A stretch of 64,000 bases of DNA from an uncultured Holophagales bacterium (GCA_963842525.1 CAWJGT010000014.1:96001-160000); one strand, 5' to 3'; counted from the first letter of the stretch, positions 46,906-63,899 are shown. The notes: generated by a model not told the origin, from the sequence alone. Numbers and translations are program-made.

Positions 46906-46933
46906 GTCCAACACGCCGCACCTGAACCGTGTC
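46906..46933 (+). promoter_or_regulatory. Conserved bipartite motif, copy 1 (putative ECF promoter), upstream of the CHAT-SAVED/sigma unit
   Basis: GTCCAACA-cgccgcacctgaa-CCGTGTC, ending 23 nt before ATG 46957. Confidence 0.8.
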
Positions 46934-46956
46934 ATTCAGGACAGGAGGTGCACAGG

Positions 46957-48906
46957 ATGGAATATCAGGACTTCACGATCGATGTACGCTCGGCCGAGGG
47001 GGGGCGATTCGAGGCCAGGGTGATCGACGCGCCGCTCGGCGGCAACCCCCGGGTGTTTTTCCCTCCTCCCCTCTCCCAGGAGGATCTGAAGACCCTGCAC
47101 GGGCTCTTCGACGGGTCGGGCAAGGAGGCGCCGGAGAAACCCTCGCCGAAAGCCCTGGCCCGCCAGATGGGGCAGCAGCTTCACACCGCTCTTTTTCGCG
47201 ACGGCGTGGCCGAGCTCTACCAGAAATGCCGGGCCACGCTCCTGAGCGACAAGAACACCGGGCTGCGGCTCCGGCTCAAATTCCAGCTCAAGGATACGGA
47301 GGCCGGCTACCTGGCTGCCCTCCCTTGGGAATGGCTGTGCGACCCCGCCTCCTGCGAGCTCCTGGCGACAGACCCGTGCACGCCCGTGGTGCGAGACATC
47401 GCCGTTCCCCGGCCCCAGGGGACTCTCGAAGTGGCAGGACCCCTGCGCGTCCTCGTCGTCGCCTCAGCCTCCAGCGACATGGGCCTCGACCTGGAGCAGG
47501 AGATCGAGCGGATGGCCGCGGCGCTCAAGCCTCTCGAAGAGTCCGGCAAGGTGAAGCTGGTCCGGCTCGCGACGGCTGACCCGAACGCTCTCCGCGAAGC
47601 CCTCAAGGACGACAAGATCCACGTCCTCCACTTCATGGGCCACGGCGGTTACGATCCCGAGTCCGGCAACGGCGCAGTCATCTTCGCGCAGGAGGGCGCG
47701 GGCAAGGACCAGGTCAGCGGAGAGCCGTTCGCCACCTATCTGAAGGAGCTTCCCAGCTTGCGCCTCGTGGTGCTCAACGCCTGCAAGACCGCGCGGTATG
47801 CCAGCCGGCGAGGCCCCTCGCTCAACCACGGCCTGGCCCCGGTCGTCCTGGAACGCACCCGGGTGCCCGCCGTGGTGGCGAACCAGTACACCATCTCCGA
47901 CACGGCCGCCATTGCCTTCAGCGAGACCTTCTACCGCCGCATCGCCAAGGGGGACCCGGTCGACGAGGCCCTCACCGAGGCACGGTTGCAGCTCTACCGG
48001 ACGAGTGCCGAATGGGCGACGCCGGTCCTCTTCCTCGCCGCACCGCACGGCAGGCTCTTCGCCCTGGGAGCGGCGCGCTCCGACAACGGACTCGTGCACC
48101 GTGAGAAAACCGAGATGATCCGCCTGGGAGTGCGGAGCTTCGATGGATTCGGCGGCGACATGAAGGCACGTAACGAGGCGGTCCTCGAGCTGGCCGGCTA
48201 TTTCGACGGCCGCTATATCAAGCGGAAGGAAGACTGGCAGGAGAAGATCTTCCCGGAGCTGCGAGCATTCCTCCTGAGATGGATCGATCCGCACCGGCCC
48301 CTGCTGCTCGATTTCGCCGCTCATTCCTCGATCGCTTTTGCTGCCGGCTGGGTCCTGGAGCCCAAGAGCGGCCTCGATGTGCGGGTATCACAACGCATCT
48401 CGGGAGAAGGGGTGCTCGATTGGCATCCCAAGGACGGCACGGAGCCGGACGGCTCTCTCTGGCTCGACCGGCCTGACATCGAGCTCGACCCCGAGGCTCC
48501 GGATGTGGCCCTGGCCCTCTCGGCGAGCCAGCCGGACGTGGCCGGCCACGTGCAGGACTTCGTCCAGCGCAAGAGCCTCTCGATCGGGCGGATCGTGGAC
48601 GCAACGGTTGCTCCCGAGCCCGGTCCCCACTCGGTACGCGGCGGAGCGCACGCCTTGGGCCTCGCCCAAGCGCTCCTCCCCCGCCTGCGGCCCAGGAAGC
48701 CTCACGAACGCAAGGGCCGCACCCACCTCTTCTGCGCCGCTCCCAATGCTCTCGTCTTCTACCTGGGACAGCTCGCGTCCTCGCTGGGGAGAGTCGTCCT
48801 CTACGAATTTGCCTTCCGTGCGGAGGATTCGTTCGGGCGGTATCAACAATCCATCGAGCTGCCACCACCCGGCGAAGCCTCTCAGATTCCAGGCGACGAC
48901 TGGTAA
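46957..48906 (+). CDS. CHAT (caspase-like) protease fused to a C-terminal SAVED cyclic-oligonucleotide sensor
   Basis: LPWEWL, catalytic HFMGHGG and VVLNACKT, EWATPVLF. SAVED-like part: LGVRSF..YFDGRYI, AAHSSIAFAAGW, HLFCAAPNALVFYLGQ..LYEF. AGGAGG RBS. Confidence 0.9.
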   Translation: MEYQDFTIDVRSAEGGRFEARVIDAPLGGNPRVFFPPPLSQEDLKTLHGLFDGSGKEAPEKPSPKALARQMGQQLHTALFRDGVAELYQKCRATLLSDKNTGLRLRLKFQLKDTEAGYLAALPWEWLCDPASCELLATDPCTPVVRDIAVPRPQGTLEVAGPLRVLVVASASSDMGLDLEQEIERMAAALKPLEESGKVKLVRLATADPNALREALKDDKIHVLHFMGHGGYDPESGNGAVIFAQEGAGKDQVSGEPFATYLKELPSLRLVVLNACKTARYASRRGPSLNHGLAPVVLERTRVPAVVANQYTISDTAAIAFSETFYRRIAKGDPVDEALTEARLQLYRTSAEWATPVLFLAAPHGRLFALGAARSDNGLVHREKTEMIRLGVRSFDGFGGDMKARNEAVLELAGYFDGRYIKRKEDWQEKIFPELRAFLLRWIDPHRPLLLDFAAHSSIAFAAGWVLEPKSGLDVRVSQRISGEGVLDWHPKDGTEPDGSLWLDRPDIELDPEAPDVALALSASQPDVAGHVQDFVQRKSLSIGRIVDATVAPEPGPHSVRGGAHALGLAQALLPRLRPRKPHERKGRTHLFCAAPNALVFYLGQLASSLGRVVLYEFAFRAEDSFGRYQQSIELPPPGEASQIPGDDW

Positions 48907-48927
48907 TGCGCCGAGGCCCGATCAACG

Positions 48928-61782: not shown

Positions 61783-62472
61783 ATGATTCAGCGAGACATT
61801 GTCGAGCGTGCCCGGCTGTTCGCATTGGAGCTCGCCAACGGGCCGACCCCGATCAAAAAGAATGTGCTACTGGCTCTCGTGTCCGATTTCCTGAGCTCTC
61901 GCCCACCCGATCGTGAGAGGCTCCGCCGAATCCTGACCTTGGTGAAGGAGGGCAACGGAGGCCATGTCCTCCGGGGTGAAGGATATGGGGACCAGGTGCG
62001 CGCAGCCGTCGATGCTATCGAAGGCTTGCTCCAAGAGGAGGAGCTCAGCGACGAACAGTACAAGAGCCTCTTTGGCTGGACTGCGCGATTGCTGGTAGTG
62101 AAACAGTCGCCGGCCAAGGATATGGACCAGGAGGCGGCAGAGGGACCGGGGAGACGCACTTTTGCAGCCCCACAAACAGGGTGGCGTAGAGGGGGCAGGC
62201 CAACGCCCCCGCCACCACCTCCTCCGCCGCCGCCCAAGATCACCACTACCCGCTGGCCGGACGTCGAGATCGGCTGGCACAAGGGCTCCCCCGCTGTTAT
62301 CCGGGGAAAGCAGCCTGCCGTGCCCTGTCCCCGGGAGCTGCTGCCGTCGGATCTCCTCGATGCGTTGAAGGACAAGAAAACCAAGATAAAGGCGGATGTG
62401 CTCGTAGTGAAGATCCCGGGAGGCGGCGGCTACCGGGTCGACAAGATCGAAAGCTGGAAGATCGTCCCTTGA
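61783..62472 (+). CDS. CRISPR-linked unknown protein: helical domain (LFGWTARLL), Pro-rich linker and small beta domain
   Basis: Tightly spaced within the operon; no family recognised with confidence. Confidence 0.65.
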   Translation: MIQRDIVERARLFALELANGPTPIKKNVLLALVSDFLSSRPPDRERLRRILTLVKEGNGGHVLRGEGYGDQVRAAVDAIEGLLQEEELSDEQYKSLFGWTARLLVVKQSPAKDMDQEAAEGPGRRTFAAPQTGWRRGGRPTPPPPPPPPPPKITTTRWPDVEIGWHKGSPAVIRGKQPAVPCPRELLPSDLLDALKDKKTKIKADVLVVKIPGGGGYRVDKIESWKIVP

Positions 62473-63728
62473 TGAACATTTCCCCCTTCGGCCCCATCTT
62501 TCTGAGCTATCGCCAGTCGGATGGTCTGGCGCATGCCCGAGCGTTGGCGTGGGCTCTCCGCTCGGCCGGTGCTCCGGTGTGGCACGATGATGCAGACCTC
62601 CCTCCGGGCGATACGACCCAACGGCTGTCGGAAGCGCTGGCGAGCGGACTCTCCGGCGCGGTGCTCCTCGTCACGCCTGAGATCGAGAAATCCACCGTCG
62701 TCCGCAAGGTCGAGCTGCCGCAGCTCCTCCAACTCGAAGGGGACCCTTCTTTTACCTTCCTCGTGACAACCGAAATCCCGGATGCCGGCGATCCCGGCAA
62801 AGTGGACTTCCGGGCCGCCGACCGTCTCCTCCACAAGCGGCGCGGAACGCTCTCCCGTCTGAAGCAGTGGCCCCTTTTCGGAGAGGGCGCGCTGGAAAGG
62901 ATCGCCCGGCAAATGGTGCTCCGGCGCATGGAGGCGTTTTCGAAGCTGGGCAGGGATGAGATCGTTGTCGAGATCCAGAGCCGCTTCGAGGCCGGCGCCG
63001 AGTACGCCGGCTCTCCTCTGCTCGTCCGCACGCGGCCGCCCGAGCCCGGCCGTCGTGTGCCCCCTCCGGAGATCTGGAAACCTTTCGGTGCATTTCTCGC
63101 GAACCTCCCCCAGCTCCTGCGCACCGCCCAGGCGCGTAATGTCGTCGTCCAGGGCGGCGCCCATCCCAGCATCTCTTTCGCGCTCGGCGCCGCGCTCCCT
63201 CTCACAACCCCGTGGGGGCCGAACCTCTCTGTGAAAGATCAATTTGAGGAGCGCTGGCCGTCCAAGCCGGGCTCCCCTGCACCCGAGCTCGCCCCGGACC
63301 TCCAACCCTGTGGCCCTGCCGGCGCCCCTCTCGCCGTCTATATCGACCTCTTACGCACTCCGGCGCCCTGCGACGCTTTCGAAGCCTACGTGGCGCCTCG
63401 CAGGTCCACCTGCTCCGCCACCCTGAGCCTCGTTTTGCGACACCGCCGCAATATCGAAGCGCACGAAGGTGGAGCCCTCGCCCAGGAGATCTCCCGGCAC
63501 ATTCGCGAAGCCGCGAGCGCTCGCCAGACCCATCGGGTCTACCTCTTCCTGCGAGCCCCCTTCGCAATCCCGGTCCTCCTCGGGCAACGACTCAACACTC
63601 TGGAGATCACTCTCCACGAGTGGGAAGATGGCGACGGCCCGCTTCCGCATTACCTTGAAGCCGCCACCATCGCCTCCGGCCGCGGCAACGGCCCCGTCCT
63701 CGCCGCAGCCCGCAGCACGGCTCTTTGA
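62472..63728 (+). CDS. TIR-SAVED effector (predicted cOA-activated NADase)
   Basis: GPIFLSYRQSDG..WHDDADLPPGD..SGAVLLVTPEI..S.VVRKVE (putative catalytic Glu). SAVED part: GGAHPSISFALGAALP, VYLFLRAPFAIPVLLGQRLNT..HEW. Confidence 0.9.
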   Translation: MNISPFGPIFLSYRQSDGLAHARALAWALRSAGAPVWHDDADLPPGDTTQRLSEALASGLSGAVLLVTPEIEKSTVVRKVELPQLLQLEGDPSFTFLVTTEIPDAGDPGKVDFRAADRLLHKRRGTLSRLKQWPLFGEGALERIARQMVLRRMEAFSKLGRDEIVVEIQSRFEAGAEYAGSPLLVRTRPPEPGRRVPPPEIWKPFGAFLANLPQLLRTAQARNVVVQGGAHPSISFALGAALPLTTPWGPNLSVKDQFEERWPSKPGSPAPELAPDLQPCGPAGAPLAVYIDLLRTPAPCDAFEAYVAPRRSTCSATLSLVLRHRRNIEAHEGGALAQEISRHIREAASARQTHRVYLFLRAPFAIPVLLGQRLNTLEITLHEWEDGDGPLPHYLEAATIASGRGNGPVLAAARSTAL

Positions 63729-63871
63729 CAATTGAAGTCATAGAAACTCACGCCCAATTGACCAGATCCGTACGGTGGGCTTCCGGGCGTGGTGTGCCCC
63801 CAGGGCTCCGTCAAAGTTCCACAAAGCCGACGACCCGGGGCATTGCGGCAACGGGAGGAAAGCCCCGGGCT

Positions 63872-63899
63872 GTCCAACAATCTCCCAACGAACCGTGTC
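63872..63899 (+). promoter_or_regulatory. Conserved bipartite motif, copy 4, pointing out of the window
   Basis: GTCCAACA-atctcccaacgaa-CCGTGTC. Confidence 0.78.

Follow-up and report, generated by a model that had tools for sequence, protein, structure and literature searches.

What controls a type III CRISPR-Cas (clustered regularly interspaced short palindromic repeats and associated genes) system that is encoded next to a sigma factor operon? The question is raised by a 64,000-nucleotide stretch of DNA from an uncultured Holophagales bacterium (GCA_963842525.1, CAWJGT010000014.1:96001-160000; here called the window), in which a bipartite box, GTCCAACA-N13-CCGTGTC, recurs around an operon for a sigma factor of the extracytoplasmic function (ECF) type and the cas genes that follow it. 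Directly observed are the pattern of the box, how it is distributed and conserved, and that it occurs together with the sigma factor. What the box most likely represents is the sigma factor's own promoter, and the sequence evidence makes it probable that it is read by the ECF sigma factor encoded at 49032-49643 and that the regulon embraces the whole CRISPR-Cas system of the genome. The sigma factor would be set free by proteolysis of its anti-sigma factor.

The box and its placement in the genome

An exact scan of the window, which spans positions 96001-160000 of contig C14 in an assembly of 9,949,763 bp with 67.8% G+C, returns the four plus-strand copies listed below and no further exact match. 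All four are intergenic, and in an alignment their 8+7 fixed bases are invariant, with variable spacers and flanks (mean column identity 57%). Dinucleotide shuffles of the window give an expectation of 0.01 matches, and four or more matches arose in none of 100 shuffles. In the whole genome (9.95 Mb) the exact pattern occurs nine times, with both words unchanged and a spacer of 13 nucleotides (nt) in every copy; the same search found no copy with a spacer of 8-12 or 14-19 nt and none of the pattern read backwards, and the half-sites GTCCAACA and CCGTGTC taken singly occur 126 and 1518 times. With one substitution allowed in GTCCAACA-N14-CGTGT, the genome yields 14 matches against 5, 10 and 0 for three control words; ten of these are CRISPR-Cas linked, and the remaining four (C3:1481304, C3:731952, C3:1750922 and C9:687912) lie within the control-word background. 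The nine exact copies and one variant in the -10 element all stand upstream of CRISPR-Cas units, three before genes of the window and seven in leaders of CRISPR arrays.

The four positions, the strand, the intergenic location and the identical halves at a spacing of 13 nt with variable spacers had been put forward in the original prediction and were confirmed by the scan and alignment, as was the gene list around the boxes by Pfam; its remark that the box was not noticed in the first 46 kb is borne out as well. A chance origin of the boxes was rejected on the window shuffles, the nine genomic copies at a single spacing, and the reversed and word controls. A genome-wide repeat unrelated to CRISPR, named at the outset as a possible refutation, was also rejected, with all nine exact copies and the one variant CRISPR-Cas linked.

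The window features are arranged as follows (ORF, open reading frame; RAMP, repeat-associated mysterious protein).

43156-45351: GGDEF-EAL protein, an ordinary gene directly upstream of the locus
45531-46757: DEAD-box helicase, an ordinary gene
46876-46901, plus strand: terminator-like hairpin and T-run (stem 46876-46891, then TTTTTTGAAT), closing the helicase unit directly before box 1 and setting the GGDEF-EAL and helicase genes apart from the locus
46906-46933, plus strand: box 1, GTCCAACA-N13-CCGTGTC, 23 nt from the ATG at 46957; predicted promoter of the CHAT-SAVED/sigma/anti-sigma/TPR-CHAT operon (autoregulation)
46957-48906 (alternative start 46948), plus strand: CHAT-SAVED (Pfam CHAT 1.5e-27, SAVED 1e-23)
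49032-49643, plus strand: ECF-type sigma factor with regions 2 and 4 only (Pfam Sigma70_r2 and r4_2; NCBIfam TIGR02937 at 1.1e-23, above cut-off; ECF sigma factors in PDB)
49653-50486, plus strand: anti-sigma factor of 277 amino acids (aa), predicted from hydropathy, an AlphaFold model and a predicted complex with the sigma factor
50683-53646, plus strand: TPR-CHAT, GTG start at 50683 (Pfam TPR and CHAT; lipoprotein-type signal, beta-sandwich, TPR array, CHAT)
53652-53679, plus strand: box 2, 6 nt past the TPR-CHAT stop and 63 nt from the next ORF; predicted promoter of the small ORF
53743-53961, plus strand: acidic, Pro/Gly-rich ORF of 72 aa with a Shine-Dalgarno sequence
54082-54109, plus strand: box 3, 64 nt upstream of cas6; predicted promoter of the cas6-cas10-RAMP-TIR-SAVED operon
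54174-55082, plus strand: cas6 (Pfam CRISPR_Cas6 4.7e-17)
55079-56848, plus strand: short cas10 (589 aa; Pfam Cas10 palm2; GGDE at 338)
56704-58221, 57836-59089, 58716-59909, 59912-60823 and 60828-61766, plus strand: five RAMP genes (Pfam, NCBIfam)
61645-62472, plus strand: conserved ORF of no known family inside the cas operon, also present in related loci without the sigma factor
62469-63728, plus strand: TIR-SAVED effector (Pfam TIR_2 3.7e-09, SAVED 1.1e-12)
63872-63899, plus strand: box 4, 144 nt past the TIR-SAVED stop, in the distal part of the leader that precedes CRISPR array 1

The three copies before protein genes lie 23-64 nt from start codons with Shine-Dalgarno sequences, and a simple scan of 46500-64000 found no sigma-70-like promoter, with 1.2 expected. 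The placement of box 1 ahead of the sigma factor's own operon and behind a terminator-like hairpin fits the predicted autoregulation. The locus has the features of a type III system, namely a Cas10 with a cyclase motif (GGDE), several RAMP subunits, Cas6 and an adjacent array; no N-terminal HD domain was seen in Cas10. The best NCBIfam matches of the RAMPs are Csx10 and Csx7, which is III-D-like, and since just one Csx7 match lies above the cut-off, the CRISPR subtype is left open.

Beyond the end of the window, where the original prediction had guessed at an array, a CRISPR array does follow. Its first repeat (GTCCCAATTGACCAGAGCAGTACGGTGGGATTGCGAC) lies at contig position 160287, 287 nt beyond the window end and 415 nt after box 4, and two more arrays come after it on C14, each with a box 436 nt upstream of its first repeat. 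The repeats number 17, 29 and 16 in these three arrays, whose leaders are duplicates of each other. The other exact copies are found in the leader of an 8-repeat array on C22 (299 nt upstream), in a leader at C3:978886 that is followed by one repeat and a fragment, and in a leader on C12 with one decayed repeat. A tenth site, at C3:808547, has a -10 box that reads GGTGTC and stands before an array of three repeats whose sequence is a variant of the family. The box is present in all seven leaders of the GTCCCAATTGACCAGAGCAGTACGGTGGGATTGCGAC repeat family, 299-436 nt ahead of the first repeat. For the second array type on C3 (repeat GTTTCAATCCACGC...), the surrounding 9.5 kb holds no box at up to two substitutions. 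The regulon suggested by this placement would have four parts: the sigma factor's own operon (CHAT-SAVED, sigma, anti-sigma and TPR-CHAT), the small acidic ORF, the cas6-cas10-RAMP-TIR-SAVED operon, and every array of the matching repeat family, down to those on three other contigs that are small or decayed.

When eight leaders are aligned, some 240 nt directly next to the first repeat stand out as a conserved core, and the box is found farther upstream at a variable distance from it. The core (for example L009:970-1290 and L010:4930-5190) shares CTCTTTGACAAC, which contains a TTGACA word, as well as direct GTGCCAG/ATGCCAG words, AAAATGGCAT, and GGGGTAACGGCGG twice; these shared words may act as a basal promoter or as signals for integration. 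The idea that the conserved leader words (TGGCAT..) are sigma-54 elements, judged by eye, was dropped because the spacing is not kept from leader to leader. Tandem repeats are a further property of these regions: a family of 62-63 nt (containing CGCTCCGCAAACCCAGCGTGAGCTCACGCTGG), which is not a CRISPR and is present on at least a dozen contigs, adjoins three box-bearing leaders (L009:6847-7539; L010:5392-5968; L011:8450-8556), and an 83-nt tandem repeat precedes the second-type array (contig C3, about 1741800-1745400, repeat GTTTCAATCCACGCCCCCGCGCGGGGGGCGAC). Between array 1 and leader 2 lies an adaptation gene of the RT-Cas1 type (RT, reverse transcriptase; L009:2676-3968, that is C14 161676-162968), which has no box of its own and stands downstream of array 1. 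Its parts are in three frames (RT 2676-3491; Cas1 3488-3832 and 3510-3968; a Cas2-like word at 3974-4002), which reflects either a decayed gene or assembly errors.

The geometry of the box is that of a set of mapped ECF promoters. The AA at box positions 5-6 and the CGT at positions 23-25 are separated by 16 nt, and this AA-N16-CGT arrangement is the same as in the four DdvS promoters of Myxococcus xanthus, which read GTAA-n16-CGT and, in the main text of PMC6061681, are confirmed by 5′ rapid amplification of cDNA ends (5′RACE), lacZ fusions and chromatin immunoprecipitation with quantitative PCR (ChIP-qPCR). The same source describes ECF promoters as AAc/cGT and gives AA at -35 and GT at -10 as the critical bases of the DdvS promoters. 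The box has the further traits expected of an ECF promoter, with AAC in the -35 element, CGT in the -10 element, a fixed spacer and a copy before the sigma factor's own operon. The -35 element with CAAC and the -10 element with CGTGTC would accordingly be the sites read by the sigma factor encoded at 49032-49643. Among 44 collected sequences, additional biased positions are a C before the box (36/44), an A after it (32/44) and the C at position 28 (36/44), the core columns of this tally being circular, as the fixed words were used to collect the sites.

Co-occurrence of the box with the sigma factor

Sixty relatives were searched for the box and for the sigma factor, with an ortholog defined as a match of at least 190 bits. 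Ten of them have such an ortholog (190-264 bits, 52-66% identity), and paralogs reach at most 141 bits in the protein search. The exact box occurs in six relatives, one or two copies in each, and the reversed control gives two matches over all 61 genomes. These six are all among the ten genomes with a sigma ortholog (6/10), and none of the 50 genomes without one has an exact box. The sites in the six genomes lie before cas6, before a cas10-like ORF, in the gap between the TPR-CHAT stop and the small ORF, or in a CRISPR leader. In the other four ortholog genomes, variants of the box with one or two mismatches cluster on the contig of the sigma gene, for example GTCCAACA...CGTGTT four times in G031 and ...CGTGTA in G017, and the changes in the -10 element are common to sites of one genome (CGTGTT in 4/4 sites of L076; CGTGTA in 2/3 sites of L073). 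The congeneric genome G003, which has no sigma ortholog, shows background only, with 14 matches against 24 for the control.

A scan based on the CHAT-SAVED alignment extends the comparison to 79 loci, 18 with the sigma ortholog (from 16 assemblies) and 61 without. At up to one substitution, 33 boxes were found in 310,893 bp of the sigma-bearing loci, spread over 16 of the 18, and none in 962,153 bp of the 61 sigma-less loci; the reversed control matched nowhere in the former and twice in the latter.

Several points weigh against the proposed circuit or limit what these counts can say for it. Two of the 18 sigma-bearing loci are boxless at this threshold: the contig of L088 begins within cas6, and L094 is a second copy in which cas6 is truncated. 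The 61 sigma-less loci belong mostly to other phyla and have only partial CHAT matches, and because related genomes are not independent samples, the counts of co-occurrence look statistically weightier than they are and are descriptive only. The leader boxes stand 299-436 nt ahead of the first repeat, and a conserved TTGACA lies in between, so that the arrays may be driven by a further promoter as well. In the TPR-CHAT model discussed below, confidence is low for the CHAT part, and the dependence on the sigma factor, the transcript starts and the mechanism of release are all deduced from the sequence patterns.

The fair comparators among the sigma-less loci are seven, L097-L102 and L104, in which CHAT-SAVED is 38-41% identical; the protein is full length in L097-L102 and is cut in L104 by the end of a 1.8-kb contig. 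L097 and L099-L102 have related cas6, cas10 or RAMP genes or arrays, and no sigma factor, anti-sigma factor or TPR-CHAT. No box was found at up to two substitutions in L097-L102, nor at up to one in L104. Conversely, a distant module, L096, has a sigma factor of 42% identity and diverged boxes (CGCCAACA/CCCCAACA...CCGTGT), located about 190 nt before CHAT-SAVED on the opposite strand and after the TPR-CHAT stop. Because the sigma-less comparators are boxless and the diverged sigma factor is accompanied by diverged boxes, the box tracks the sigma factor and not the CRISPR-Cas genes. The sigma regulon originally predicted, consisting of the sigma factor's own unit, the small peptide and the cas operon, thereby gains in silico support from both the placement of the box and its tracking of the sigma ortholog.

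The same evidence bears on whether the box could be the site of another regulator encoded elsewhere, either a different ECF paralog or a transcription factor. The genome does hold many ECF paralogs (86 first-look candidates, six of them matching at E<=1e-20), but these are at most 44% identical, the box follows this particular ortholog group (16/18 versus 0/61 loci; 6/10 versus 0/50 genomes) and precedes this sigma factor's own operon, and no other DNA-binding domain was found in the module with Pfam and NCBIfam, which renders such a regulator improbable.

The relatives share a conserved module, [cas6]-CHAT-SAVED-sigma-anti-sigma-TPR-CHAT, with boxes before cas6 and/or CHAT-SAVED, 6-18 nt past the TPR-CHAT stop, and before the cas10 operon. 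The box past the TPR-CHAT stop is seen in seven loci including the window, and a box before cas6 in L015, L021, L013, L068, L071, L075 and L077. In every case the box is oriented toward the unit that follows it, and divergent pairs standing back to back occur in several loci. This strict orientation, divergent pairs included, is hard to reconcile with the box being a structural or recombination element that marks module boundaries, perhaps a leader-end signal for array duplication or spacer uptake. Such an element would account for the boxes at module junctions (after TPR-CHAT, before cas6 and at distal leader ends) and for the three C14 leaders having been duplicated from each other. On the other hand, the two parts of the box keep a fixed spacing around a spacer of free sequence, the distance between box and conserved leader core varies, three copies stand 23-64 nt before protein genes with Shine-Dalgarno sites, and the geometry is ECF-like; a structural role is thus very improbable, and a promoter remains the preferred reading.

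A small ORF of 37-77 aa follows the post-TPR-CHAT box in eight loci (the window, L014, L067, L068, L071, L073, L076 and L077). These ORFs have strong Shine-Dalgarno sequences, are acidic and Pro/Gly-rich, and loosely share FLADP and GPKGDR-like words; no family and no signal peptide was found for the small ORF, and in the window a GC-rich hairpin (53703-53721) lies in its 5′ leader. A crude filter found none in L081, L082, L083, L091, L103 and L096, which does not show absence.

Individual loci display some further variation. In L015, L068:6859 and L071:7002 the box ends 9-11 nt before the apparent cas6 ATG, so that either the transcript would be nearly leaderless or the true start codon is further in; PMC6061681 reports something similar for MXAN_7283. 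The whole module is present in two copies in some relatives (L065/L066 in G004; L074/L075 in G002), G031 (L076) has a second CHAT-SAVED and a C-terminal fragment, each with its own box, and L073, L093 and L103 have TPR-CHAT or other genes of the module broken up across frames.

Regulator proteins and proposed release of the sigma factor

The anti-sigma factor has a strongly conserved helical N-terminal domain, a single membrane helix at about aa 129-152 according to hydropathy, and a C-terminal beta-sandwich of about 110 aa that is confidently modelled by AlphaFold. It has no Pfam or NCBIfam family and no PDB sequence match at E<=0.01, and a Foldseek search with the model returned generic beta-sandwich matches only (phage Ig-like domains, cupredoxins). 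As there is no cysteine among its 277 residues, it is not a zinc (CHCC) anti-sigma domain. The gene is adjacent to that of the sigma factor, and in the predicted complex the anti-sigma N-domain is placed on sigma domains 2 and 4, as in the DdvS/DdvA type. The complex of the sigma factor with residues 1-125 scores 0.82 in three runs, against 0.00 for the best of three controls; this mark is reached by 58 of 80 solved complexes and by two of 110 mismatched pairs. Contact agreement between runs is at least 95%, the predicted local distance difference test (pLDDT) of the partner is at least 80, and the contacts involve both sigma domains, although, since sigma/anti-sigma complexes have already been solved, the score may stem from resemblance to these and is no demonstration of binding.

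For the TPR-CHAT frame the most probable start is the GTG at 50683. From there the N-terminus shows a charged residue, then a hydrophobic stretch, then a cysteine (..LLLLLSC), which is the pattern of a lipoprotein signal, and the lipobox-type cysteine is found in 13/13 TPR-CHAT orthologs. On account of this signal the protein is probably periplasmic. Its CHAT motifs are kept (HFATHG / LSACQT, with the His and Cys), and the model consists of a beta-sandwich, about 13 TPR pairs and the CHAT domain. In full-chain Foldseek matches DdvA comes first (8rw5, E 5.0e-11, 1000 columns, 16% identity; 8rot_A), followed by separases and Csx29, all with low TM-scores of about 0.2-0.3 (DdvA about 0.2); by sequence, DdvA is not among the phmmer PDB hits of TPR-CHAT. 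CHAT-SAVED combines an N-terminal CHAT protease with a C-terminal SAVED sensor, the latter resembling the SAVED domain of Cap4 (PDB, 1e-23), and its His229 and Cys276 are invariant in the alignment. With no hydrophobic segment detected by hydropathy, CHAT-SAVED is predicted to be the only cytoplasmic protein among itself, the anti-sigma factor and TPR-CHAT.

These features suggest how the sigma factor might be controlled. At rest it would be bound by the N-terminal domain of the single-pass membrane anti-sigma factor, and its release would need proteolysis of the latter. The likeliest trigger would be cleavage of the outer domain of the anti-sigma factor by the periplasmic TPR-CHAT lipoprotein, followed by intramembrane cleavage, as proposed for DdvA. 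In the DdvA model, as outlined in the text of PMC11506125, the periplasmic TPR-CHAT senses a signal and cuts the outer part of the anti-sigma factor, and intramembrane proteolysis then frees the sigma factor. Once freed, the sigma factor would raise its own level, and CRISPR RNAs (crRNAs), the effector complex and the two SAVED effectors would be switched on together. The original prediction of a protease-gated regulon thus survives in part: proteolytic gating is still what we infer, and the topology then implied does not hold, given the apparent single-pass membrane anti-sigma factor, the probably periplasmic TPR-CHAT and CHAT-SAVED as the only cytoplasmic member.

Release could also come from inside the cell, a possible if somewhat doubtful alternative in which the box is equally a sigma promoter. 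CHAT-SAVED would be activated by cyclic oligoadenylate (cOA) from Cas10 and would then either cleave the anti-sigma factor on its cytoplasmic side or set off a cascade. Recognition of a target would in this way influence transcription of the cas genes and crRNAs, a feedback with a logic like that of the Calp or PCaspase systems, possibly side by side with the periplasmic route. Consistent with this, CHAT-SAVED opens the sigma operon in every locus and is always linked to it, its catalytic His and Cys are invariant, Cas10 retains the GGDE motif, a Pfam scan of the locus ORFs revealed no CD-NTase or other cyclase of a cyclic oligonucleotide-based antiphage signalling system (CBASS), and precedents exist, to the extent that their sources describe them, in CalpL/T/S, in the SAVED-CHAT to PCaspase cascade and in Csx29/Csx30/CASP-sigma. 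However, CHAT-SAVED homologs of 38-41% identity stand beside the same cas genes or arrays in L097-L102 without any sigma factor, which implies that CHAT-SAVED has a role that does not need one. In addition, a purely internal trigger would require basal expression, were the cas genes and crRNAs expressed solely through the sigma factor, and the conserved periplasmic partners point to an input from outside.

A combination of the two routes is speculative and rather unlikely. In such a two-input alarm, TPR-CHAT would sense phage contact outside and cOA-activated CHAT-SAVED the target RNA inside, both acting on one anti-sigma factor. Early contact or confirmed infection would then free the sigma factor and, through a loop that amplifies itself, turn on all arrays, the dispersed orphan ones included, along with the effector complex and the two SAVED effectors, and the small acidic ORF could serve as a sigma-controlled substrate or modulator of the proteases. 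Periplasmic cleavage as the first step remains the preferred route.

Comparison with known CRISPR-linked sigma factors

The closest counterpart, as far as the main texts of PMC6061681 and PMC11506125 describe it, is the DdvS/DdvA system of M. xanthus, which likewise joins an ECF sigma factor, a membrane anti-sigma factor and a linked periplasmic TPR-CHAT to a type III CRISPR-Cas locus. Several identical ECF promoters, here predicted, are common to both, among them a copy ahead of the sigma operon and another ahead of the cas genes, as are a CHAT-SAVED effector in the regulon, the AA-n16-CGT spacing and a TTGACA in the leader (in M. xanthus, that of CRISPR4). To DdvA there is a match of fold and none of sequence in the PDB searches with the anti-sigma factor and TPR-CHAT, and the PDB sequence hits of the sigma factor do not include DdvS. 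The differences described in these texts are also considerable. The anti-sigma factor and TPR-CHAT are separate genes in all loci seen here (stop at 50486, start at 50683 in the window), whereas DdvA is a fusion of the two; TPR-CHAT here is a predicted lipoprotein with its own signal, and the anti-sigma N-domain lacks cysteine and with it the CHCC zinc domain. The -35 element reads GTCCAACA instead of GTAA. Each of the seven leaders here has its own box, remote and decayed ones included, whereas the M. xanthus leader is described as having no DdvS promoter and its array as being read through from cas6. Finally, no CD-NTase or CBASS genes were seen among the locus ORFs scanned with Pfam, unlike in the M. 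xanthus locus, and the phylum here is Acidobacteriota, with relatives labelled as Thermoanaerobaculia/Acidobacteriota metagenome-assembled genomes.

The type III-E CASP-sigma/Csx30/Csx29 system, according to the text of PMC10028731, also has a CRISPR-linked TPR-CHAT protease, an ECF-like sigma factor and an inhibitor, and its sigma motifs inside the CRISPR locus are reporter-tested. There, however, a cytoplasmic protease is bound to Cas7-11, and cas1 plus two unknown genes are named as targets. In the present locus the sigma factor is predicted to act on the cas operon and the arrays, the TPR-CHAT protein has a predicted periplasmic location, and the inhibitor sits in the membrane.

In Haliangium ochraceum (bioRxiv 10.1101/2023.06.23.546230), the preprint text describes a type III locus in which a cOA-sensing SAVED+CHAT protease lies beside a sigma factor (PCc-sigma), the inhibitor PCi and a second, caspase-like protease, and in which a cascade from SAVED-CHAT to PCaspase cuts the sigma factor and its inhibitor; the authors call the targets of the sigma factor unknown. 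In contrast, CHAT precedes SAVED in the protein studied here, a predicted TPR-CHAT lipoprotein stands in place of the C14 PCaspase as second protease, and the targets of the sigma factor are predictable. CHAT-SAVED gives a weak match to 8tl0 in the CHAT region (2.3e-07), and no caspase C14, kinase or CI-2-like family (homologs of PCaspase, PCk and PCi) was found by Pfam among the locus ORFs scanned. CalpL/CalpT/CalpS, as presented in bioRxiv 10.1101/2024.05.08.593097, similarly use a SAVED-protease to free an ECF sigma factor from an anti-sigma factor in a type III system, but with a Lon protease and a soluble anti-sigma factor, and no regulon is given in the text.

The targets of CRISPR-linked sigma factors other than DdvS remain unknown according to the discussion of PMC11506125, and the preprint texts on CalpS and PCc-sigma (bioRxiv 10.1101/2024.05.08.593097; 10.1101/2023.06.23.546230) give no target genes for either. 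In the main texts covered, no promoter or regulon was found for a CHAT-SAVED-linked sigma factor besides DdvS, and no such CRISPR regulon defined apart from those of DdvS and CASP-sigma. The present locus offers a sharp, testable regulon for a CHAT-SAVED-linked sigma factor in a second phylum. If the boxes work as predicted, crRNA supply, the effector complex and the suicide-type effectors would be under one inducible switch, with a separate promoter for each array, unlike the read-through in M. xanthus. The separation of the anti-sigma factor and TPR-CHAT further amounts to a naturally split DdvA, in which the proposed protease step could be easier to test in trans. The kind of circuit is already known from DdvS/DdvA, and the present system is a variant of it.

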